Assembly (NCBI GenBank): GCA_024235015.1
Contig: JACKNG010000003.1
Location: forward strand, 280,397-344,396
Source: Gammaproteobacteria bacterium
GTDB taxonomy: Bacteria; Pseudomonadota; Gammaproteobacteria; Ga0077536
Length of the DNA: 64,000 bases
Direction of reading: 5' to 3'
Both the position numbers and the translations under genes were made by a program. The stretch's first letter is position 1. Every line of letters begins with the position of its first letter. The notes beneath the pieces were generated by a model. It had not been told where the DNA came from and did not search any database. It saw nothing but the letters and a program-made list of their open reading frames with translations. Positions 1 to 59,928 of the stretch are shown here, in pieces.

Positions 1-392
1 GTTCGCAGGCCGACAGCCAGGTCAGCAGGCCGCCGAAGCAGTAACCGACCACGCCGACCTTGCCGTGCGCGGCGACGGCGTCGATGGCCGCCTGCAGGTC
101 CTTGAGGGTGTCCTCGAGCCGGAGATCCTGGAAGGCGATGCGCAGGCCCTTGTCGAAATCGGCCTGCTCGGTGTAACCGAGTTCGACGTCGGCCTCGACG
201 CGATCGAAGATCTGCGGCGCGATGGCGACGTAACCAGCCTTGGCATAGTCGTCGACCACGGCACGAATGTGCTTGTTGACGCCGAAGATCTCCTGGATGA
301 CGACGACGCCACCCTTGGGCGTGCCGCTCGGCGCGGCCTCGTAGGCGCCGAAGGTGAAGCCGTCAGCCGCGGTCAGTTTGCGCTGTCCCATG
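1..392 (-). CDS. dienelactone hydrolase family protein (carboxymethylenebutenolidase-like), 3' end truncated by window edge
   Basis: Minus-frame translation from ATG at 392: MGQRKLTAADGFTFGAYEAAPSGTPKGGVVVIQEIFGVNKHIRAVVDDYAKAGYVAIAPQIFDR...GYCFGG. This shows the DLH-fold motifs, including the nucleophile elbow region. It is not in the ORF table because it runs off the window. Confidence 0.6.
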
Positions 393-509
393 TGGTCAAG
401 TCTCCGTGGTCGGGTCGGGAGCGCTCGATTGGAACCGAGTGTGCGGCCCAGATCAACCGCCGCCGGCGGGCCCTCATGCCCCGGCAGGGCCGCCGTGACG
501 TGGGGTTCC

Positions 510-545
510 AAAAAACCGGACAACTGTCCTAAAATCGCCCGCACC
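510..545 (+). promoter_or_regulatory. sigma-70-like promoter (TTCCAA-18nt-TAAAAT) with embedded GGACAACTGTCC palindrome upstream of amine dehydrogenase operon
   Basis: TTCCAA at 506-511 and TAAAAT at 530-535, with an 18-nt spacer containing the palindrome GGACA-AC-TGTCC (518-529). This lies about 50 nt upstream of the GTG at 588. Confidence 0.35.
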
Positions 546-587
546 GGGCCGCCGTGCCGGGGCACTCAGACTAGGGAGGCGAGAATC

Positions 588-1739
588 GTGAAGCGGGTAT
601 CTACTTCTATCCTCACCGGGCTGGCGCTGCTGCTCGGTTGCCGTCTCGCCATGGCCGAGCTCCAGCCCGAGACCCTCACCGTCGGCAAGCTGCCGCCGGC
701 GAACCCACACCGCATCTACCTGAGCGACCTCGGCGGCCTCGGCCACGTCGTCGACGGCCGCATCCATCTCGTCGATGGCGACTCCTACAAGTATCTCGGC
801 GCGATCCCGGCGGCCATGTTCGCCCTCACCGCGCTGTCGCCCGATTCCAGCGAGATGTACCTCGCCACCACGTATTACACCAAGCTCAACCGCGGCAAGC
901 GCTTCGACCAGTTCGAGGTCTACGACACCGCCACGCTGAAGCTGAAGTCGGAGATCGAAATCCCGGCCAAGCACGCCCAGGCCCTGCCCTACAAGGGCAC
1001 CATGGTGTCGACTGCCGACGGCCGTTTCGTCATCATCCAGAACGCGACCCCGGCCAGCTCGGTGACGGTGGTCGATCGCAAGGCCGAGAAGTTCGTCACC
1101 GAGATCGAAACCCCCGGCTGCTGGATCATCCTGCCCGCGGCCTCCAACGCGCGTCGCTTCGCCACCCTCTGCGGCGACGGCACCCTGCTTACCGTCACCC
1201 TCGACGACGACGGCCAGGCGGTCAGCCAGCAGCGTTCGGCCAAGCTCTTCGACGCCGAGAAGGACCCGCTGTTCGTGCAGGCCGAGCACATCGGCGACAG
1301 CTACTACTTCGTCTCCTACGAGGGCAACCTGCACCAGATCAACGTCGGCGGCGACACCGCCGTGCTCGAGGACAAGTGGTCGCTGGTCGACGACGCCGAT
1401 CGCGCGGCGAAGTGGAAACCCTCCGGATACCAACTCACCGCCCTGCACGCACCGAGCAAGCGTTTCTACGTCGCCATGCACGACAACGCCTACGACGGCA
1501 GCCACAAGAACCCGGCCAAGGAAATCTGGGTGTTCGACCTCGCCACCAAGCAGCGCATCCAGCGCGCGCCCGGCTCGAACTCCGTCGCCATGGCACTGAG
1601 CAAGGAAGAGAAACCGGTGCTGTTCACCTACGACGGCATGACCGCCGAGTTCGTACGCTACGACACCGTGCCCGAGCTCAAGCCCGGCGCGCGCAGCAAG
1701 CCGGTCGGTGAATTCGCCGGCCTCGTGCAACTGCACTAA
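588..1739 (+). CDS. mauB: TTQ-dependent (methyl/aromatic) amine dehydrogenase heavy chain, beta-propeller
   Basis: GTG start after an AGGGAGG RBS; signal peptide VKRVSTSILTGLALLLGCRLAMA. The ORF 354..1739 translation resembles MADH/AADH large subunits (7-bladed propeller, e.g. YLSDLGGLGHVVDG, DTATLKLKSEIEIP). It is followed by mauE, mauD and mauA homologs. Confidence 0.8.
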   Translation: MKRVSTSILTGLALLLGCRLAMAELQPETLTVGKLPPANPHRIYLSDLGGLGHVVDGRIHLVDGDSYKYLGAIPAAMFALTALSPDSSEMYLATTYYTKLNRGKRFDQFEVYDTATLKLKSEIEIPAKHAQALPYKGTMVSTADGRFVIIQNATPASSVTVVDRKAEKFVTEIETPGCWIILPAASNARRFATLCGDGTLLTVTLDDDGQAVSQQRSAKLFDAEKDPLFVQAEHIGDSYYFVSYEGNLHQINVGGDTAVLEDKWSLVDDADRAAKWKPSGYQLTALHAPSKRFYVAMHDNAYDGSHKNPAKEIWVFDLATKQRIQRAPGSNSVAMALSKEEKPVLFTYDGMTAEFVRYDTVPELKPGARSKPVGEFAGLVQLH

Positions 1740-1748
1740 GCCGCGTCG

Positions 1749-2285
1749 ATGCCGGACATCGTCATCCAGCACGTGGCCGCGGCGACCCTCGCCATCGTGT
1801 TCATGGTCGGCGCGTGGCAGAAGCTGCGCGATCGCATCGGCTTCGAGATCGCGCTGGACAACTACGACCTGCTGCCGGCAGCGCTGGTCAAGCCGGTCGC
1901 CTGGCTGCTGCCCGCCTTCGAGTTCGCCACTGGCCTGGCCCTGGTCTCGCCGTGGCGCACGAACGGCGGCGTGATGGCCCTCCTGCTGCTCGGCTTCGTC
2001 ACCGCCGGCGTCGTCGTCAACCTGCTGCGCGGCCGGACCGACGTCGGCTGCGGCTGCGGCGGCATCGAGGACGAGCAATTGCTGTCGTGGGCACTGGTCG
2101 CGCGCAACGGCGTGCTCGCCCTCGGCGCCTGCGCCACCCTCGGCGCCGGCGTGGCGCGCCCGCTGGCCTGGCTCGATTACGTCACCGTGGTGGGCGCGAC
2201 GCTCAGCGCCTACGCGCTGTACGTGGCGGCCAACCAGCTCATCGCCAACCGGCCGCGCCTGGCGCGCCTGAGGCGTCCGGCATGA
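1749..2285 (+). CDS. mauE: methylamine utilization protein MauE-like membrane protein
   Basis: Polytopic membrane protein located 9 nt after the heavy-chain stop; conserved mau/aau position. Contains the CGCGG motif typical of MauE. Confidence 0.7.
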   Translation: MPDIVIQHVAAATLAIVFMVGAWQKLRDRIGFEIALDNYDLLPAALVKPVAWLLPAFEFATGLALVSPWRTNGGVMALLLLGFVTAGVVVNLLRGRTDVGCGCGGIEDEQLLSWALVARNGVLALGACATLGAGVARPLAWLDYVTVVGATLSAYALYVAANQLIANRPRLARLRRPA

Positions 2286-2872
2286 ACACCGCGCTTGCCA
2301 TCGCCGTCGGCGTGCTGTGGCTCGTGGTCATCGCGCTGGTCGTCGCGGTGTTCGCCCTGGCGCGCCAGATCGGCATCCTCTACGAACGCGTCGCGCCGAT
2401 GGGCGCACTGATGCTGGACGAAGGGCCCAAGGTCGGCGAGCAGGCGCCGCGCTTCACCCTCGCCACGCTCGCCGGCGGCAGCGTCAACCTCGGCCACCCC
2501 TCGCAGCGCGGCGAACTCCTGTTCTTCCTCTCGCCGACCTGCCCGGTGTGCAAGAAGCTCCTACCCGTGCTGCGCTCGATCGCCAAGGCCGAGGCCGACT
2601 GGCTCGACGTGGTGCTGGCCAGCGACGGCGACGAGCCCCGCCAGCGCGCCTTCTACAAGAAGGCCGGCCTGGAAGATTTCCCCTACGTGTTGTCACACGA
2701 CCTCGGCATGGCGTACAAGGTCGGCAAGCTGCCGTACGCCGTGCTGCTCGACGAAAGCGGTCAGGTGCGCGCCAAGGGTTTGATCAATTCGCGCGAGCAG
2801 CTCGAGAGCCTGTTCACGGCCAAGGAGCTCGGCGTCGAATCGATCCAGCAGTACCTGGGCAGCGGGGCGTGA
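2282..2872 (+). CDS. mauD: MauD-like thioredoxin-fold protein (TTQ biogenesis)
   Basis: ATGA overlap with mauE; N-terminal TM anchor then a CPVC thioredoxin motif (LSPTCPVCKKLLP). Typical MauD arrangement. Confidence 0.75.
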   Translation: MNTALAIAVGVLWLVVIALVVAVFALARQIGILYERVAPMGALMLDEGPKVGEQAPRFTLATLAGGSVNLGHPSQRGELLFFLSPTCPVCKKLLPVLRSIAKAEADWLDVVLASDGDEPRQRAFYKKAGLEDFPYVLSHDLGMAYKVGKLPYAVLLDESGQVRAKGLINSREQLESLFTAKELGVESIQQYLGSGA

Positions 2873-2960
2873 CCCGCGCGCAGGGTAGTGGAAGACGCCG
2901 GCGCTCGGCGACAAGAACGGTACAAGGTCTCGGAGACCCGAGGCGCGGGAGACGCGACTT

Positions 2961-3497
2961 ATGAGATGGTTTGACGACTTCTTCGAACGCCAGGCGCGCA
3001 ACGTCGCGCTGAAGACCTCACGCCGCAGCGCGCTGCTGCGCATCGGCCGCGTCATGGTCGGCACGGCCTTCCTGCTGCCGGTGCTGCCCTTCGATCGCCA
3101 GCCGCGTGCCCAGCACGGCGCCATCGACGACGGCAAGCACGACCCGCTCGACCCGGAGCGCTGCGAATACTGGCGCTACTGTTCGCTGGACGGCACGCTG
3201 TGCACCTGCTGCGGTGGCTCCATCACCACCTGCCCGCCGGGCAGCGAGCCATCCTCGGTGACCTGGATCGGCACCTGCCACAATCCCGAGGACGGCAAGG
3301 ACTACCTGGTCAGCTACAACGACTGCTGCGGTGGCGCCAGCTGCGGGCATTGCTTCTGCAACCAGAACGAGGGCGAACGCCCCGGCTACCGCATGGGCAT
3401 CCACAACGACATCAACTGGTGCATGGGCAACGAGAGCAGCGTCTACCACTGCACGGTGTCGGTGGTCCTCGGCGAGTCCGGCGCCAAGGCCGGCTGA
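2961..3497 (+). CDS. mauA: TTQ-dependent amine dehydrogenase light (small) chain with Tat signal
   Basis: Twin-arginine signal (SRRSALLRIGRV). Cys-rich mature domain (CTCCGGS...CCGGASCGHCFC...NWCMG) characteristic of MADH/AADH light chains that carry the TTQ cofactor. Confidence 0.85.
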   Translation: MRWFDDFFERQARNVALKTSRRSALLRIGRVMVGTAFLLPVLPFDRQPRAQHGAIDDGKHDPLDPERCEYWRYCSLDGTLCTCCGGSITTCPPGSEPSSVTWIGTCHNPEDGKDYLVSYNDCCGGASCGHCFCNQNEGERPGYRMGIHNDINWCMGNESSVYHCTVSVVLGESGAKAG

Positions 3498-4040: not shown

Positions 4041-4916
4041 ATGACCGTCGAGTACATGGCCGCCATCCGCGCGCGCTACGAGAAGCTCGGTTACACGCCC
4101 TACCGCTGGTACGTGGCCGAGGATGCACCGCCCTTCGCGCCGCTGCGCCAGCCACTGGCCGCGAGCCGCCTGGGCCTGTTGTCGACCTCCGGCGCCTACG
4201 CCGTCGGCCAGTGCGCCTACCACTACAAGGACGACGCCGGCTTCCGCGCGATCCCGTCGGACACCGCACCGGAGGACCTCCGTTTCTCGCACATCACCGA
4301 GAACTACCTGGTCGACCCCAAGCAGGACCCGGACTGCATCTTCCCGCTCGGCACCCTGCGCGCGCTGGTCGCCGACGGCGCCGTCGGCGCGCTCGCCGAC
4401 GAGGTCTTCTCCTGCATGGGCGGGGTCTACTCGCAGCGCCGCGTACGCGAGGAAACGGCGCCGGCCCTGCTCGAGGCCTTCCAGGGACAAGGCGTCGACT
4501 GCGCGCTGCTGGTCGCGATGTGACCGGTGTGCCACCAGACCGTGTGTCTGGTCGCCCGTCACCTCGAAGCGCACGGCATTCCCACCCTCGTGCTGGGCTC
4601 GGCGCGCGACATCCTCGTCGCCGGGCGGCCGCCGCGCGCGGCCTTCGTCGACTACCCGCTCGGTCACAGCGCCGGCAAGCCACACGATCGCGCCGACCAG
4701 CGCAGCGTGGTGAGCGGCGCCCTGGCCGGCTTCGCCACCATCGACACGCCCGGCACCCTGATCGACCTGCCCAATGCCTGGGGCGACGACGCCTGGCGCA
4801 GCGAGGCCAGTTCGACCGAGGCCCGCGACACCCGCCAGCCGCGCGACCTCACCCCGCAATGGCAGCGCGCGGGCGACCGCGAGGCCGCCATTGCGAGCGG
4901 TGCCTGGGCACCGTGA
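4041..4916 (+). CDS. PrdB/GrdB-family (glycine/sarcosine/betaine/D-proline reductase protein B-like) selenoprotein candidate; in-frame TGA (Sec) at 4521-4523
   Basis: ATG at 4041 follows GGGGAGAAAG. ORFs 3522..4523 and 4527..4916 are in the same frame, separated by one TGA. TGA readthrough gives ...CALLVAM-U-PVCHQTVCLVARHLEAHGIPTLVLG, matching the PrdB/GrdB active-site region (U-x-x-C-H followed by ...GIPT). Upstream DPDCIFPLGTLRALVADG also resembles PrdB. A hairpin lies 10 nt downstream of the TGA. Confidence 0.55.
4534..4552 (+). promoter_or_regulatory. candidate bacterial SECIS-like stem-loop downstream of in-frame UGA
   Basis: A-CCAGAC-CGUGU-GUCUGG-U: a 7-bp stem with a 5-nt loop containing GU, starting 10 nt after UGA 4521-4523. 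A possible outer GGUG/CACC closing stem spans 4526-4563. Confidence 0.35.
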
Positions 4917-29911: not shown

Positions 29912-31611
<1,700 letters not shown>

Positions 31612-31615
<4 letters not shown>

Positions 31616-31929
31616 GGCGTGCCCTCCAGCGGCCCCATGACCGTGCCACGGAAACCGTACACGCGGCGCAGCCCGGCGTAGGGCACCAGCGTGACGGTGC
31701 GGGTCTGGCCGGGCTCGAAACGCACCGCCGTGCCGGCCGGGATGTCGAGGCGCTGGCCGCGCGCCGCGGCGCGATCGAATTCCAGCGCCGGGTTGGTCTC
31801 GGCGAAGTGGTAGTGCGAACCGACCTGCACGGGGCGGTCGCCGGTGTTGGCAACGGCCAGCTCGATCACCGGGCGGCCGGCGTTGAGTTCGATCTCGCCG
31901 TCGTCGACGAAGAGTTCTCCTGGGATCAT
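31612..31929 (-). CDS. ureB: urease beta subunit
   Basis: 105 aa, [19 protein letters not shown].... Confidence 0.9.
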
Positions 31930-31954
31930 GGCGGGGTCCTCGCGCGCCTGCGCT

Positions 31955-32257
31955 TCAGGGGATGGGGTCGTGCACGGTGACGAGCTTGGTACCGTCGGGG
32001 AAGGTCGCCTCGACCTGCACCTCGGCGAGCATTTCGGGCACGCCCTCCATGACCTCGTCGCGGCTGAGGATGCGGGCGCCCTCGCTCATCAGCTCGGCGA
32101 CGCTGCGACCGTCGCGCGCGCCCTCCATCACGGCGGCCGAGATCAGCGCCACGCATTCCGGGTAGTTCAGCTTGACGCCGCGCGCACGGCGGCGCTCGGC
32201 GACCAGCGCGGCGGTGAAGATGAGCAGCTTGTCCTTCTCGCGGGGGGTCAGTTCCAT
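31955..32257 (-). CDS. ureA: urease gamma subunit
   Basis: 100 aa, [34 protein letters not shown].... Confidence 0.9.
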
Positions 32258-53607: not shown

Positions 53608-53886
53608 AGCCCGCCGTATCGACGCACCGCCGGGGCGATCCGCGGGCGGCCCCGCCCGGCGGGCGCACAGGTCGGCGGGCGCGGCGAGGGGCGAGCGGGA
53701 AGCGCGTTTCGTGCCAGCGGACGCGCCGCGCCGGGCGACGCGGAAGACAAGCGGCGGGCGGCACGGCCAGGTGTTCAGGCCGCCCCTGAAAATATTTTCC
53801 CGGCGACACCGCAGTCTCGATTAAAATCACGCCAGCGCGCGTGCCGCGCGCGGCCTTACACTCATTGCCCACCCGACGGAGATCCA

Positions 53887-55611
53887 GTGTCCGAAAAAGT
53901 CCTCACCGACGTCTGTTTCGAAAACTTCGCGTTACATCCCCAGTTGCTCAAGGGTCTGGAAGAAGCGGGTTTCGTCCGCTGCACCCCGATCCAGGCCATG
54001 ACCCTGCCTCTCACCCTCGAGGGCAAGGACGTCGCCGGCCAGGCCCAGACCGGCACCGGCAAGACTGCTGCCTTCCTGGTCGCGCTGTACAACCGCCTGC
54101 TGAACCGGGATGCCCTGCCGCAACGCCGGGCCGAGGATCCGCGTGCCGTGATCCTGGCACCGACCCGCGAACTGGCCGTCCAGATCGAAAAAGACGCCCA
54201 CCAGATCGGCGCCCATACCGGCCTGCGCCTGGCCCTCATCTACGGCGGCGTCGACTACGACAAGCAACGTGCGGCACTGGAAGCCGGCGTCGACCTGGTC
54301 ATCGCCACGCCGGGCCGCCTCATCGATTTCCTCAAGCAGGGCACGGTCAGCTTCCAGGCCATCGAGATGATGGTCCTCGACGAAGCCGACCGCATGTTCG
54401 AGCTCGGCTTCATCAAGGACATCCGCTACATCATCCGCCGCATGCCGGGGGCGAGCGAACGCCAGAACCTGCTGTTCTCGGCCACCCTCAGCCACCGCGT
54501 GCTGGAACTCGCCTACGAGCACATGAACGACCCGGAGAAGCTGGTCGTCGAGAGCGACAGCATCACCGCGGCCAACGTGCGCCAGGCGGTGTACTTCCCG
54601 GCGCGCGAGGAAAAGCTGCCGCTGCTGCTCGGCCTGCTGGCCAAGACCGAGACCGATCGCAGCATGGTCTTCGTCAACACGAAGGCTGCCTGCGAGCGCG
54701 TCGCCCTGACCCTCGAGCGCGCCGGTTACAAGGTCGGCGTGCTGTCCGGCGACGTGCCGCAGAAGAAACGCGAGAGCCTGCTCGGCCGCTTCGTGCGCGG
54801 TGAGCTCAACTTCCTCGTCGCCACCGACGTCGCCGCGCGCGGCCTGCACATCCCGGCGGTGAGCCACGTCTACAACTTCGACCTGCCGTTCGATGCCGAG
54901 GACTACGTCCACCGCATCGGCCGCACCGCCCGCCTCGGCGCCGAGGGTGATGCGATCAGCTTCGCCTGCGACGAGTACGCCATGAGCCTGCCCGACATCG
55001 AGGCCTACATCGAGCAGAAGATCCCGGTGGAATCGATCAACCCGGAACTGCTCGCGCCGCTGCCGCCGCGCCGCCCGCGCGGCGAGGGCGGCGAGAGCGT
55101 GGTCGAGGACGCCATGGCGGATGCGGCGGAGACGCGCCGCAAGCGGCGCGAACGCGACCGCCGTGACGGCGATCGTGGCGGCCGTTCGCATAGCGGTTCA
55201 CGCGGCGCCCCCCGTGGCGACGGCCGTCGCGAGGGCGGCGAACGCGGGCGCCGGCGCAGCGAAGGACCGCGCGAGGAACGTCCGCGCGAGCCGCGCGAAG
55301 CAGAGGCCCCGGCAGAAGCACCAGCGATGCCTGCCGCAGCTTCGCCACCACGAGCGGACGGCGACGGCCCGGCTGGCGAGGCGCCGCGCAAGCGCCGGCG
55401 CCGCGGACGTGGGCGCCGCCGCCCGCAGGGCGAGGACGCCGCCAGCGCGAACGGCGCGAACGGCGCGGCGCGCGCCGAGCACACGCCGGCGTCGACGGCA
55501 GCCGCGGCACCGGAGGCGACCGGCAAGCCGACGCCCAAGCTGTCGATGCGTATCAAGCAGTCCTTCCGCTCGCTGGCCAAGCGCTTCGGCTTTGCCGGTC
55601 GTCGCGGTTGA
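53887..55611 (+). CDS. rhlB: DEAD-box ATP-dependent RNA helicase RhlB-like with Arg-rich C-terminal tail
   Basis: Q-motif, Walker [13 protein letters not shown] (VLDEAD), SAT and HRIGRTAR motifs. C-terminal [17 protein letters not shown] low-complexity tail. GTG start after a GGAG RBS. Confidence 0.85.
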
Positions 55612-55651
55612 GTGGAAGGGGTCCGCCCCGCTAGCACACAGGAGACCTGCC

Positions 55652-56104
55652 ATGGCCCTGCCCGAACCCGGCGCCACCGCGCCCGCTTTCACCCTGCCCA
55701 ACCAGGACGGTCGCGACGTCAGCCTCGGCGACTTCGCCGGCCGTCGCGTCCTGCTGTGGTGGTATCCCAAGGCCGACACCCCCGGCTGAACCATCGAAGG
55801 CAAGGGGTTCCGTGATCGAATCCCCGACTTCGCCGCCCACGACACCGTGGTGCTCGGCGTGAGCAGCGATGCACCGGCCGCCAACGCCGCGTTCCGCACC
55901 AAGTTCGACTTCCCCTACGACCTGCTGAGCGACGTCGACCTCGCCATGTCGACGGCCTACGGCGCGGCCGCCGCCGGCGCCGCGCGCGCCAGCCGCGTCT
56001 CGGTGCTGATCGGCGGCGACGGCCGCGTGCTGCGGAGCTACGCCGAGGTCAAGCCGGGCGACCATCCTGCCGAGGTGCTCGGCGACCTCGCCGGCCTCGA
56101 CTGA
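55652..56104 (+). CDS. Bcp/PrxQ-type peroxiredoxin selenoprotein candidate; in-frame TGA (Sec) at 55787-55789 replacing peroxidatic Cys
   Basis: ATG at 55652 with an AGGAG RBS 7 nt upstream. Translation [45 protein letters not shown]-[TGA][48 protein letters not shown]... aligns with the Bcp consensus ...YPKDDTPGCTKEACGFRD...VLGVSxD.... The TGA falls exactly at the catalytic Cys, and the downstream ORF 55847..56104 is in the same frame. Confidence 0.5.
55795..55832 (+). promoter_or_regulatory. candidate SECIS-like extended stem-loop downstream of UGA 55787
   Basis: An outer CGAAG/CUUCG stem encloses an inner GGGG(UU)/(AAU)CCCC stem, with an apical loop CCGUGAUCG containing GU. Starts 5 nt after the UGA. 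Imperfect. Confidence 0.25.
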
Positions 56105-56220
56105 GGCCCGCGCCGGGCGGCGTCGGCCGGGGTAAGGATCGCCGGCCTGCCGCCGCTAACCCCGGGAGCATCGACGCTCCGGGGTGGAGCGTGCGCGAGT
56201 GGAGGAGGAGAAGCAGCACC

Positions 56221-57012
56221 ATGGCGGGAGCAGCCGCGACAGTGACCCAGGCCGGCCTGGGCAATGAACCCGTATACGTCTTCGGCACCGACCTCGGTGG
56301 CCAGCACCAGGGCGAGAGCGCCGCGATGGCCGCCAAGGTGTTCGGCGCCGAAACCGGCAAGGCGAGCGGTGCGACCGGCCACGCCTATGCCATCCCCTTC
56401 CGCAACAGCGCCGGCGAACTGCTGCCCGCCGAAGTGATCAAGAACTACGTCGATTCCTTCTTCGCCCACGCCCAGGCCCACCCGCAGACCCTGTTCCACG
56501 TCGCGCGCTTCGCCTGCGAGGCCCAGGCGCACGACGACGCCACCCTGGCCCGGCTGTTCGCCAGGGCGCCGGCCAACTGCCTGCTACCGGGCCTGTGGAC
56601 GGCCCGCCTCAACGCGCAGCAGGCGGCGCGCCTGCTGGTCTTCGACGCCGGCGCCCATCTCAAGGACGCCGCCTGGCAACGGAACCTCAAGGGCTACCTC
56701 GACCTCAACGCGCCGTTGTGGAACGTCAAGGCCATCGAACTCGTCACGGTGGGCAGCGCACGCACCGTGGTCGCCAACGACGTCGCGGCCAAGGCGCTGG
56801 GCCTCAAGCACCGCGTGTTCGGCCAGAACGAGTCGGCCTACGGCCGCGAGGCGGCCCTGGTCGCCGAGCACAAGGCGATCTGGTATTGCACCCACCTGCT
56901 CAGCATTCTCGATTTCGAGCAGACCGCCCAGCCGCAGCAGGTGCGCATGCTCGGCGCCGCCGCGCGCAACGGCCTGGCCATCGATCAGTTGAGCAGCACG
57001 CAGGCCGGCTGA
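56221..57012 (+). CDS. protein with N-terminal A1S_2505-like domain (phage non-structural-protein family homolog) and C-terminal extension; hypothetical
   Basis: VYVFGTDLGGQHQGESAAMAAKVFGAETGKASGATGHAYAIPF resembles the FGSN..GRHGAGAA......GAE.G...G.TG.SYAIPTKD family signature. Confidence 0.4.
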   Translation: MAGAAATVTQAGLGNEPVYVFGTDLGGQHQGESAAMAAKVFGAETGKASGATGHAYAIPFRNSAGELLPAEVIKNYVDSFFAHAQAHPQTLFHVARFACEAQAHDDATLARLFARAPANCLLPGLWTARLNAQQAARLLVFDAGAHLKDAAWQRNLKGYLDLNAPLWNVKAIELVTVGSARTVVANDVAAKALGLKHRVFGQNESAYGREAALVAEHKAIWYCTHLLSILDFEQTAQPQQVRMLGAAARNGLAIDQLSSTQAG

Positions 57013-57082
57013 CGCCGGCCGGGCTCGCGTCGCCCCTGCCGTGGGCGGCATACTGGGCGCGGTCCAAGCCGCGTCTGCATCG

Positions 57083-58147
57083 ATGAAGACCGAAACCCTG
57101 TTGCCACTGGGCAAGCTCGATCCCGGCCTCGCCGTGCCCGACTCTCCGCTCGATCTCGCCAGCGTGCCGCGCGAAGCCGGCCTCGTCGATCGGCTCGGCT
57201 ACCACGGCCTGCTGATGGAAGAGACCAAGGACGACCCTTTCGCCGTCCTCGCCCTCGCCGCCACGGCGAGCAGCCGCGTCCAGCTCGGCACCTCGGTCGC
57301 CATCGCCTTCGCGCGCAGTCCCTACGTCACCGCGATGTCGGCGTGGACCCTGCAGAAGCTCTCCGGCGGGCGCTTCGAGCTCGGCCTCGGCTCGCAGGTC
57401 CGCGGTCACGTACGCCGCCGCTTCGGCATGGAATGGCATCCGCCGGGTCCATGGATGCGCGACTACGTGCGCGCGGTGCGCGCGATCTGGACGGCCTGGC
57501 AGCACGAGACCCGGCTCGAGTTCGACAGTGCGCACTACAAGCTCGATCTCTCGGTGCCGCTGTTCACCCCGGCACCGATCGAACATCCCGACATTCCCAT
57601 CCTGGTTGCCGCGGTCAATCCGTACATGGCCGGCGTCGCCGCCGCGGTCGCCGACGGTGTGCGCCTGCACCCGGTGTGTTCACCGCGCTACATCGCCGAG
57701 GTGATCCGCCCGGCGGTGGCGGCACGGCGTCCCACCGGACAGCGTTTCGAGCTGTGTCTGAAGCCGCTCATCGCCACCGCCGGTGACGCCGACACGCTGG
57801 CGCGGCGCACCGAGATCGCGCGCCAGCGCCTCGCTTTCTATGTCAGCACCCCGGCCTACCGCCTGCCGTTCGAGCGCGCCGGTCTCGGCGACCTCGCCGC
57901 CGAACTCGCGCAACTGTCGAAGCAGCAGCGCTGGAACGAGATGGCCAAGCGCATCGACGACGCCGTGCTGCACGAGTGGGTCGTCGTCGCGCCCTACGCG
58001 GATCTCGCCGCGACCCTCGTCGCCCGTTACGGCCAGCTCGTCGATCGCGTCGAAGTCAGCATTCCGCAGTCCACGCCTGGCGACCACGCGGTCCTGGCGG
58101 GCATCCTCGACGAACTCGCGCGCGCGCCCGCGGCCCCAGCCGCGTGA
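57083..58147 (+). CDS. LLM-class (luciferase-like) flavin/F420-dependent oxidoreductase
   Basis: TIM-barrel LLM family features (GYHGLLMEETKDDPFAVLA..., ELGLGSQVRGHVRRRFGMEW). Confidence 0.65.
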   Translation: MKTETLLPLGKLDPGLAVPDSPLDLASVPREAGLVDRLGYHGLLMEETKDDPFAVLALAATASSRVQLGTSVAIAFARSPYVTAMSAWTLQKLSGGRFELGLGSQVRGHVRRRFGMEWHPPGPWMRDYVRAVRAIWTAWQHETRLEFDSAHYKLDLSVPLFTPAPIEHPDIPILVAAVNPYMAGVAAAVADGVRLHPVCSPRYIAEVIRPAVAARRPTGQRFELCLKPLIATAGDADTLARRTEIARQRLAFYVSTPAYRLPFERAGLGDLAAELAQLSKQQRWNEMAKRIDDAVLHEWVVVAPYADLAATLVARYGQLVDRVEVSIPQSTPGDHAVLAGILDELARAPAAPAA

Positions 58148-58190
58148 CGCGCGTGTGCACCGCGTTCTATTTCCACAGTTCCTGACCGGT

Positions 58191-58219
58191 TTGATCTGGA
58201 TTAGAGCGCCCGGGATAAT
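58191..58219 (+). promoter_or_regulatory. sigma-70 promoter candidate for sodB (TTGATC-17nt-GATAAT)
   Basis: -35 at 58191-58196 and -10 at 58214-58219; about 66 nt upstream of the ATG at 58286. Confidence 0.4.
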
Positions 58220-58285
58220 GCGCCCACCTACCGGGCGCGCCGCATCGGGCGCAGTCCAGTCCGCTCATCAAACCAGGAGAAAGAC

Positions 58286-58876
58286 ATGGCCCATTCCGTG
58301 CAGCAATTGCCTTACGACCTCACGGCGCTCGAACCGCACATCTCGCGCGAGACGCTCGAGTTCCACCATGGCAAGCACTATGCCGGTTACGTCGCCAAGC
58401 TCAACGCCGCCATCGAGGGTAAGGACGAGGACAAGCTCAGCCTGCTCGACCTGGTCAAGAAAGGTCCGTCGACGGCGTACTTCAACAACGCCGCCCAGAC
58501 CTGGAACCACGAGTTCTATTTCAATGCCTTCAGCGCCAAGGGCGCACGCGAACCGTCCGGCGACCTGGCCAAGGCGATCAGCGCCAAGTTCGGCGATTTC
58601 GCCAAGTTCCGCGAGGCCTTCAATGCCCAGGCGACCGGCCTGTTCGGCTCCGGCTGGACCTGGCTCGTGCTCGACGGCAAGGGCGAACTCGCCATCGTCA
58701 ACACCGGCAATGCCGGCAACCCGGTCAACGACGGCATGACCCCGCTGATGACCTGCGACGTGTGGGAGCACGCCTACTACATCGACTACCGCAACCTGCG
58801 CCCCGACTACCTCAAGGGCTTCTGGGAAGTGCTCGACTGGAACGTCGTCGGCCAGCACTACGCCGCGGCGAAGTAG
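58286..58876 (+). CDS. sodB: Fe/Mn superoxide dismutase (Fe-SOD-like)
   Basis: LPYDLTALEPHISRETLEFHHGKHY and DVWEHAYYIDYRN signatures. Confidence 0.9.
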   Translation: MAHSVQQLPYDLTALEPHISRETLEFHHGKHYAGYVAKLNAAIEGKDEDKLSLLDLVKKGPSTAYFNNAAQTWNHEFYFNAFSAKGAREPSGDLAKAISAKFGDFAKFREAFNAQATGLFGSGWTWLVLDGKGELAIVNTGNAGNPVNDGMTPLMTCDVWEHAYYIDYRNLRPDYLKGFWEVLDWNVVGQHYAAAK

Positions 58877-59019
58877 GCCCACCGCCCCGCCCGGCCGGGT
58901 CCTTGCCCGGCCGGCGCCTGGCCCGGCGGCGTGCCTGCGCTGCCGCGCCCTGCATTCCCAGTGCACCGTCTGCCGCTGCTGGCCACCGCGCGCAGCCAGT
59001 GTCTCCAGGCTGACCGTCG

Positions 59020-59928
59020 ATGCCTGAAACCCGGGCCCGCAAGCGACTCCACACCCTGTTCGCCGGCCGACGCTCAGCGCGCGCCTACCTCGTGTTCACC
59101 GCCCAACTCGCCCTGCTCGCACTGCTCACGCCGATGCTGGTCAGCCTGGCGGTATTCGGCCTCACCGCCGTGCTCGGCGGGACTGCTGGCGCATCTACCG
59201 AAGCCGTCATCGGCACGCTCGTCACGCTCGCCTTCGGCGGCCTCGCCTTCGCCCAGCTACGCGCCACCGTGCAGCGCCTGCACGACGCCGGCCGCGATGC
59301 GCGCTGGCTGGCGCCGTTCGTGCTCGTCGCCACCGCGGCATTCGCCGCGCGGGGTCATCCCGCGGCCGTGCCATGGCTGCCCTATGCCTGGGCGCTGGTC
59401 GTACTGGGCTGGCTCGGCCTCGCCCTGTGGCCCGGCACCGCGGGCAGCAATCGCCACGGAGCACCGGTTCCGCTACCCGCGAACAAGCGTGGCACGGGCT
59501 GGCTCGTGGCGGCACTGTTGGTGGGCGGCCTGCTGGCTTTCACCGTCCCGGTCTTCCTGCAGCAAGAAGAACGACGTTATGCCGTGCAGGGCTACGAGTG
59601 GGCGGCCAAGCGGCGTCAGCACGTCGAGAACGTCTATCGCATCCAGGGACGTTTCCCGGCGAACAACGCCGAGGCCGGGCTGACCGCGCTCGGCGCCATG
59701 CACGGACGCTACGTGGCGGCAGTCGAGGTCGGCGCCGGCGGCGTACTGACGTTGCGCTACTCGGACGACCCGCGCCTCGGCGACGAGGCGGCCGGCCGCA
59801 CACTGCGGCTCACGCCGACAATCGAGGACCCGGGCGACGACCCCGCCACGGCCGTCATCAGCTGGCACTGCGGCGGCGGCGACCTGCCCCAGCGCCTGCG
59901 CGCGGCAGCCTGTCGCAACACGCCGTGA
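59020..59928 (+). CDS. fusion protein: N-terminal DUF805-like 4-TM membrane domain plus C-terminal type IV pilin-like globular domain (no prepilin leader)
   Basis: The N-terminal domain carries the conserved DUF805 motif LHDAGRDARW. The C-terminal region YEWAAKRRQHVENVYRIQGRFPANNAEAGL...VISWHCGGGDLPQRLRAAACRN resembles pilin C-terminal domains with a disulfide pair. Confidence 0.4.
   Translation: MPETRARKRLHTLFAGRRSARAYLVFTAQLALLALLTPMLVSLAVFGLTAVLGGTAGASTEAVIGTLVTLAFGGLAFAQLRATVQRLHDAGRDARWLAPFVLVATAAFAARGHPAAVPWLPYAWALVVLGWLGLALWPGTAGSNRHGAPVPLPANKRGTGWLVAALLVGGLLAFTVPVFLQQEERRYAVQGYEWAAKRRQHVENVYRIQGRFPANNAEAGLTALGAMHGRYVAAVEVGAGGVLTLRYSDDPRLGDEAAGRTLRLTPTIEDPGDDPATAVISWHCGGGDLPQRLRAAACRNTP

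Follow-up and report, generated by a model that had tools for sequence, protein, structure and literature searches.

A probable selenocysteine peroxiredoxin gene with a coding-region SECIS-type hairpin in a gammaproteobacterial contig

Does an in-frame TGA inside a bacterial peroxiredoxin gene encode selenocysteine (Sec), or does it mark a gene that is broken, misread or split? The question is raised by positions 55652-56104 of a 64-kb stretch of the gammaproteobacterial contig JACKNG010000003.1 (hereafter the window, meaning the whole stretch analysed), in which a gene for a BCP/PrxQ-type peroxiredoxin (Prx) has a TGA where the peroxidatic cysteine is expected. A preliminary description of this DNA had proposed that the codon is read as Sec and that a second gene in the window has UGA in place of a catalytic Cys. 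Here, we compare the gene with its relatives at the protein and the nucleotide level and consider it very likely that 55652-56104 is a genuine Sec-peroxiredoxin gene of the BCP/PrxQ type with a coding-region selenocysteine insertion sequence (SECIS). The coordinates of the features are collected in Table 1.

The catalytic codon and its conservation

Translation of the frame that opens at 55652 gives one internal in-frame TGA only (55787-55789). The strong ribosome-binding site (RBS) and ATG noticed earlier are in place, with AGGAGA preceding the ATG, and the 85-aa open reading frame (ORF) is, as had been claimed, in the same frame as the Prx gene and its C-terminal remainder. With Cys put at the TGA position, the protein matches the Pfam family AhpC-TSA (PF00578) over residues 7-126, a match that spans the TGA (8.4e-28; 97.2 bits against a cut-off of 26). 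In HMMER alignments with solved BCP/PrxQ structures (5enu, 3drn and 3gkk, among them Xanthomonas campestris BCP), the TGA coincides with the peroxidatic Cys (TPGCT) and R115 with the catalytic Arg. The alignment with Bcp/PrxQ thus bears out the placement of the TGA at the catalytic Cys, although the Bcp motif quoted as canonical in the preliminary description is approximate. P39, T43 and R115 are invariant in a 38-sequence subfamily alignment.

The nearest sequences in the PDB are likewise BCP/PrxQ. The best NCBIfam match is the Bcp equivalog NF006960 and, because its score of 102.8 bits does not reach the cut-off of 140, the protein belongs to a diverged subfamily and is no equivalog of E. 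coli Bcp. An ortholog of PrxU was considered and rejected, given that the PrxU model NF040737 (233 positions) scores 26.1 bits against a cut-off of 270. As a proxy for the window protein, an AlphaFold model was made for the closest Cys-form, P0001 (63% identical); it has a mean predicted local distance difference test (pLDDT) score of 95.9 and template modelling (TM) scores of 0.88-0.92 to E. coli BCP, Sulfolobus solfataricus Bcp1, X. campestris PrxQ and the 1-Cys AhpE.

The protein contains no Cys at all, and the residue at U+5, the resolving position, is Lys51, as stated earlier. A resolving Cys for an atypical 2-Cys cycle, at five residues after the peroxidatic position or in helix alpha3, was looked for in the protein and none was found. 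Among 134 distinct family members, 75 are Cys-free, Cys is conserved at no position, and only N, K or Q occurs at U+5. Since the protein lacks any Cys and the family any conserved one, it would fall into the 1-Cys (here 1-Sec) mechanistic class, in agreement with the mechanism that had been suggested; an intramolecular selenenylsulfide is impossible in a protein with no Cys.

How the catalytic position is reported in databases depends on the gene call. When 5.8 billion proteins were searched, the closest relatives, at 96% and 87% identity, proved to be C-terminal fragments of 84-85 aa, and the catalytic column in the best 120 matches holds W in 60, a truncation in 13 and C in 47. GTDB species genomes and JGI/ENA metagenomes were scanned at the DNA level with the patterns WWYPKAD and EGxGFRDR[IS][QP], both of which leave out the catalytic codon. 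This gave 160 loci, or 163 together with three earlier contigs. The catalytic codon is TGA in 163/163 of them and TGG in none. Locus GC content across the 163 ranges from 41 to 71%, and the loci come for the most part from uncultured marine Alphaproteobacteria (Rhodospirillaceae-like) and Gammaproteobacteria. Protein-level selection is seen on both sides of the TGA in 132 distinct sequences, with synonymous change free elsewhere. More distant homologs have Cys at the TGA position (P0001-P0003; the 47 matches above), and the Prx TGA thus forms, as judged from these alignments, a Sec/Cys pair.

In the DNA, the fragments turn out to conceal a TGA. The W at the catalytic site of P0074, the one W call checked directly, is likewise TGA (L003:285-287), and the W calls sit on short metagenome contigs. 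We infer that the database W (P0004-P0062 and others) comes from gene callers using genetic code 4 on short contigs, a systematic mis-annotation. The closest named genome is the gammaproteobacterial metagenome-assembled genome (MAG) JBFXAQ01 (locus L005), with a Prx 86% identical to that of the window; the locus is collinear with window positions 45.5-61.4 kb at 83-86% nucleotide identity.

The hairpin after the UGA

The 132 distinct sequences align without gaps from 30 codons 5' to 50 codons 3' of the TGA. Synonymous entropy is near its maximum 5' of the TGA and again from codon +12, and it collapses in codons +3 to +11. Glu+3 is GAA in 124/132 sequences, Phe+7 is TTC in 130/131, Arg+8 is CGT in 132/132, Asp+9 is GAT in 121/132 and Ile+11 is ATC in 130/130; Gly+6 is GGG in 120 and GGA in 12 with no other codon used, and Arg+10 is CGA or AGA only. 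The conserved GAU and CGA end in A/U, opposite to the composition of the window, which has 69.7% GC and a GC content at third codon positions (GC3) of roughly 85-95%.

A hairpin of two helices is predicted just after the UGA; in the window this 36-nt element has a minimum free energy (MFE) of -11.6 kcal/mol. RNAalifold predicts the same two helices from 113 distinct sequences. In these sequences 98.7% of cells are paired; shifting the 3' partners by 1-3 columns brings the figure down to 13-63%. The spacing from UGA to loop is 21 nt in all 113 with no indels, loop variants are limited to CGUGAYM, and loop positions 2-3 are G-U in 113/113. Pairing survives in the few variants: 11 sequences have A-U for G.U, L075 has C-G for U-A, and L106 has U.G for C-G.

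Two loci have rare changed peptides after the UGA, GLRDRA and GFRDRAK (L075:9619-9681 and L057:10127-10189). Upper-helix pairing is preserved by the changes in L075 (U-A to C-G, G.U to G-C) and by most of those in L057, in which one pair becomes a G.A mismatch. The family shows no other clear compensatory events.

For bacterial SECIS elements (bSECIS), the model given in a 2026 review (PMC13188914, Fig. 2 legend) calls for an upper stem of 4-16 bp capped by an apical loop of 3-9 nt. Loop positions 1 and 2 should include at least one G, with G or U as the usual next nucleotide, the spacing between UGA and apical loop should be 16-37 nt, and the MFE should be -7.5 kcal/mol or lower. The window hairpin lies within all four published constraints (loop 7, stem 7 bp, G2-U3, 21 nt and -11.6 kcal/mol). 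The preliminary description had proposed to fold 55790-55840 and compare the result with a SECIS model; the hairpin predicted there agrees with the model and is under nucleotide-level selection.

A control is provided by three Cys-containing relatives that are 61-63% identical (L164, L165 and L166). In L164 the peptide GKGFRDRS is coded GGT TTC CGG GAT CGG TCC, in L166 the peptide GKTFRDHY is coded ACC TTT CGC GAT CAT TAT, and the hairpin cannot form in either. L165 (L165:120-572) has a TGC codon, yet its hairpin (GGG TTC CGT GAT AGA ATC) is intact, and its distance to a Sec form is 0.08. It looks like a 'fossil SECIS' left by a very recent conversion from Sec to Cys; its TGC could also be an assembly variant on the 590-nt contig. 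In a neighbour-joining tree, which has no support values and is suggestive only, all three Cys-forms are placed within the Sec clade. Because L164 and L166 have lost the hairpin and L165, close to a Sec form, retains it, the nucleotide constraint tracks the TGA and not the peptide. The contrast between Sec- and Cys-forms is a useful, textbook-style example of a coding-region SECIS limiting codon choice.

The second UGA gene and the rival explanations

Both strands of the window were scanned for TGA codons with a strong coding signal (GC3 > 0.8) on either side. Homology continues across the stop at 55787 and 4521 only, which puts the Prx observation well outside what chance would give. The TGA codons at 31955 (UreA/next urease gene), 63578 (GST/TerC), 28666 (before UreG), 36645, 16328 and 62659 were rejected as Sec sites, being cases of adjacent genes that share a frame, and a looser rescan of the window for small redox-motif selenoproteins gave no third candidate.

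The TGA at 4521 lies in a candidate selenoprotein gene of the PrdB/GrdB family. Its product scores 122.5 bits against TIGR04483, short of the equivalog cut-off of 300, and is, on sequence, probably no true D-proline reductase subunit. Among its best 120 homologs, 65 end exactly at LLVAM before the TGA and 49 are full-length with Cys at that place. The UGA is followed after 13 nt by a hairpin of 7 bp (CCAGACC/GGUCUGG, loop GUGUG). The gene thus behaves as a second independent Sec/Cys pair in the window, and the earlier claim of a second UGA-at-Cys case is upheld. A 90% identical PrdB-like homolog (P0167) is truncated at the TGA, and the pairing of Prx and PrdB-like genes is probably also present in the related MAG that holds L005. 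We infer that the source organism decodes Sec, and the Prx gene and the PrdB-like gene (4041-4916) are its probable markers.

Several results weigh against a Sec-decoding gene with a SECIS. Searches by tblastn with SelA, SelB and SelD (E. coli sequences as probes) gave no match in the window and, in the flanks of the related loci (about 1.2 Mb), one weak GTPase match (L067) only; motif searches for the Sel machinery found none. No selC gene for tRNA-Sec was found in the 64-kb window, which has no tRNA gene at all, or in 60 related loci. Regarding the hairpin, true covariation is thin (2 double-sided changes) because the element hardly varies, and its single-sequence stability against shuffles (z = -1.35) is not significant in the GC-rich context. 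In low-GC relatives the 36-nt element barely reaches -7.5 kcal/mol (family median -7.9; 69/113 pass). No Rfam family covers the hairpin, either at the gathering threshold across the whole window or at E<=10 in 55700-55900, a result that is silence and no evidence against it. The case for the hairpin rests on synonymous-site conservation and on the Cys-form control.

The lack of Sec genes in the DNA searched would fit read-through of the UGA without Sec, in which near-cognate Trp, Cys or Arg is put in and the hairpin only stimulates read-through or pauses the ribosome; structures 3' of stop codons can promote read-through in other systems. We nevertheless regard it as very improbable, given that a peroxiredoxin with Trp or Arg as its peroxidatic residue would be inactive and that Cys could have been specified by its own codon. 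Moreover, the hairpin agrees with every bSECIS criterion, loop G-U and spacing included, the catalogues list the family beside other Sec/Cys families from the same marine communities, where SelD is abundant too, and the window holds a second Sec/Cys gene.

Slighter still is the chance of a pseudogene or of a sequencing or assembly error, in which a Cys codon (TGC or TGT) has mutated to, or been misread as, TGA. The two codons TGC and TGA are one base apart and the close relative L165 has TGC, but the same TGA stands in all 163 independent loci, from many assemblies and taxa. This counters the refutation named in the preliminary description, namely TGC orthologs pointing to a pseudogene, or a sequencing error. 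Purifying selection on the whole ORF (amino acids conserved and synonymous change free on both sides) and a specific RNA element conserved only beside the TGA argue against it as well.

That the locus is a split gene, with a 45-aa peptide ending at the TGA and a separate 85-aa product from GTG 55847, is what gene callers annotate: on related public contigs they give exactly these 45-aa and 85-aa fragments, each of which alone matches AhpC-TSA/Redoxin. However, the 19 codons from TGA to GTG (TIEGxGFRDRIQDF...) are among the most conserved of the family and would stay untranslated, and because these residues are conserved in all relatives, translation must cross the TGA. Neither fragment would have a complete active site, with T43 and R115 separated and the nucleophile absent, and there is no RBS before GTG 55847; we give this explanation hardly any credence. 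Genome-wide reassignment of UGA to sense (code 4 or 25), implied by the W printed for 60 of the best 120 database homologs, can be dismissed for the window because UGA is a normal stop there: TGA ends 35/43 strongly coding frames, in-frame TGAs with coding homology before and after them number just two, and the DNA behind the W calls has TGA, not TGG.

Gene context, proposed mechanism and known systems

Table 1 Features of the Prx gene, its predicted hairpin and other genes in the window.
Feature	Position	Strand	Remarks
Shine-Dalgarno-like AGGAGA	55640..55645	+	6 nt 5' of ATG 55652; read from sequence
Complete selenoprotein CDS (predicted), BCP/PrxQ-type peroxiredoxin	55652..56104	+	150 codons = 149 aa plus Sec46; translation, AhpC-TSA match
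Predicted Sec codon UGA	55787..55789	+	Codon 46, peroxidatic position of PxxxTxxU (P39, T43, U46)
Terminal stop TGA	56102-56104	+	Translation of the 55652 frame
Mechanical 85-aa GTG ORF	55847..56104	+	C-terminal remainder of the Prx gene, no gene by itself
Bacterial SECIS-type element (predicted)	55796..55831	+	Folding, RNAalifold, synonymous-site conservation
Lower helix	55796-55799 with 55828-55831	+	
Upper helix	55804-55810 with 55818-55824	+	7 bp in the window, 6 bp in the family consensus
Apical loop CGUGAUC	55811..55817	+	7 nt; begins 21 nt after the UGA (55790-55810)
PrdB/GrdB-family selenoprotein candidate	4041-4916	+	TGA 4521-4523, codon 161, ALLVAM-U-PVC-HQT, UxxC motif
MauB-like heavy chain	354-1739	+	
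MauE	1749-2285	+	
MauA-like light chain	2961-3497	+	
RhlB-type DEAD-box helicase	53887-55611		Upstream neighbour of the Prx gene
263-aa protein	56221-57012	+	Directly 3' of the Prx gene
Superoxide dismutase	58286-58876		Within 58152-59728

The Prx gene follows an RhlB-type DEAD-box helicase gene after a gap of 40 nt, in which no promoter-like or terminator-like site was found, and the order helicase-Prx is found again in L002 and L005. A common transcript of the two genes is plausible because the gap is free of such sites and the order recurs. Downstream of the Prx gene come a 263-aa protein, a luciferase-like monooxygenase and an Fe/Mn superoxide dismutase. The 263-aa protein has no Pfam match; its arrangement with Prx is also present on the related contig L167, and window positions 53785-58151 align with the MAG locus L005. 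Within the otherwise collinear region, 58152-59728 gives no DNA-level alignment with L005:12478-14040. The lack of alignment points to local replacement or to much faster divergence of this segment, which contains the superoxide dismutase gene and the beginning of a DUF805/pilin-domain gene.

Elsewhere in the window, a methylamine dehydrogenase cluster (354-3497, + strand) lies directly 5' of the PrdB-like gene. A match to the Rfam family 5_ureB_sRNA (31180-31466, + strand; 105 bits, E = 1.3e-26) is antisense to a - strand coding frame at 29912-31954. A neighbouring UreG-like GTPase motif suggests a urease operon, and the match most likely reflects conserved coding sequence and not a real small RNA.

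The proposed mechanism follows bacterial Sec insertion as described by Bock and colleagues and summarised in PMC1088965. After transcription, probably together with the upstream helicase gene, SelB-GTP carrying Sec-tRNA(Sec) would bind the apical hairpin through its invariant loop G-U with the UGA in the ribosomal A site, and Sec would be put in instead of termination. By analogy with other peroxiredoxins, the Sec46 selenolate, with Thr43 and Arg115 of the PxxxTxxU pocket as activating residues, would attack the peroxide and become a selenenic acid. As in 1-Cys peroxiredoxins, thioredoxin, glutaredoxin/glutathione or another thiol from outside the protein would then reduce the selenenic acid; an external reductant would be required because the protein is Cys-free and the family has no conserved Cys.

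It is unlikely, in our view, that the clade goes beyond a routine Sec/Cys swap as a completely Cys-free single-Sec peroxidase. In Alpha- as well as Gammaproteobacteria, and from 41 to 71% GC, the 19-nt SECIS core GGGUUCCGUGAUCGAAUCC hardly changes. This could mean that gene and SECIS move between lineages as a cassette, or that the hairpin has a second role in selenium-dependent translation control; it is also explained simply by the conserved peptide GFRDRI overlapping the SelB-binding site.

Compared with the E. coli fdhF-type and consensus bSECIS, the predicted window hairpin likewise lies within the coding sequence just past the UGA and has a small loop with G then U, at a spacing within 16-37 nt. 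It differs in having no bulged nucleotide in the upper helix and a loop of 7 nt, and its loop positions N1/N2 (C, A) are unpaired, unlike the most common bSECIS loop pattern.

At the protein level, PrxU of Eubacterium acidaminophilum (NF040737; PMC13188914 ref. 83), the Sec-peroxiredoxin that has been studied biochemically, likewise has Sec at the peroxidatic position in PxxxTxxU but belongs to another Prx subfamily than the window protein, whose nearest sequence and fold matches are BCP/PrxQ. The Cys-type BCP/PrxQ proteins (E. coli, Xanthomonas campestris and S. solfataricus Bcp1) share the fold, as judged from the proxy model, the Pro/Thr/Arg residues and the position of the nucleophile, whereas the window protein has a predicted Sec for the peroxidatic Cys and no resolving Cys. 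AhpE of Mycobacterium tuberculosis, called a '1-Cys peroxiredoxin' in PDB titles, is of similar size and fold (TM about 0.90, proxy model) and depends on an external reductant for its one redox-active residue, as is predicted for the window protein, but it has Cys and not Sec, a lower similarity (E about 1e-13) and a place in another subfamily.

The closest known system is the marine 'Peroxiredoxin (Prx)' selenoprotein family (COG1225/pfam00578, TxxU) of Zhang, Fomenko & Gladyshev 2005 (PMC1088965) and Zhang & Gladyshev 2008 (PMC2398784), the latter of which counted 253 Prx and 235 PrdB selenoproteins in the Global Ocean Sampling (GOS) data. The domain, the TxxU/PxxxTxxU motif (T43-P-G-U46 in the window protein) and the subfamily signature ending in (N/K)GFRDRI are all common to both. 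The extended motif is identical in AACY01271188, AACY01451564, JCVI_READ_560720 and JCVI_READ_1000727, which the supplements of PMC1088965 and PMC2398784 list as 'Peroxiredoxin', and the window protein is 60% identical to GOS JCVI_READ_1000727 over 149 residues without gaps. A PrdB-type selenoprotein, abundant alongside the marine Prx in the same samples, is present in the window too.

Nothing of substance differs from the marine family. The window copy belongs to a relative, with 70% GC, of an uncultured gammaproteobacterial MAG, is unmarked as a selenoprotein in the public gene calls consulted, and has Pro in place of Gln after GFRDRI, giving one extra G-C pair in the upper helix. Because the same subfamily motif stands in the Sargasso Sea and GOS supplements, the window gene is, as far as its sequence tells, an un-annotated ortholog in an already known family. 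The subfamily has been catalogued since 2005 among the most abundant selenoprotein families of surface-ocean bacteria, so that the scientific addition is little. For annotation, one 150-codon selenoprotein should be called instead of 45-aa and 85-aa fragments, and the spurious Trp at the catalytic site of public metagenome proteins may mislead alignments and active-site inference.

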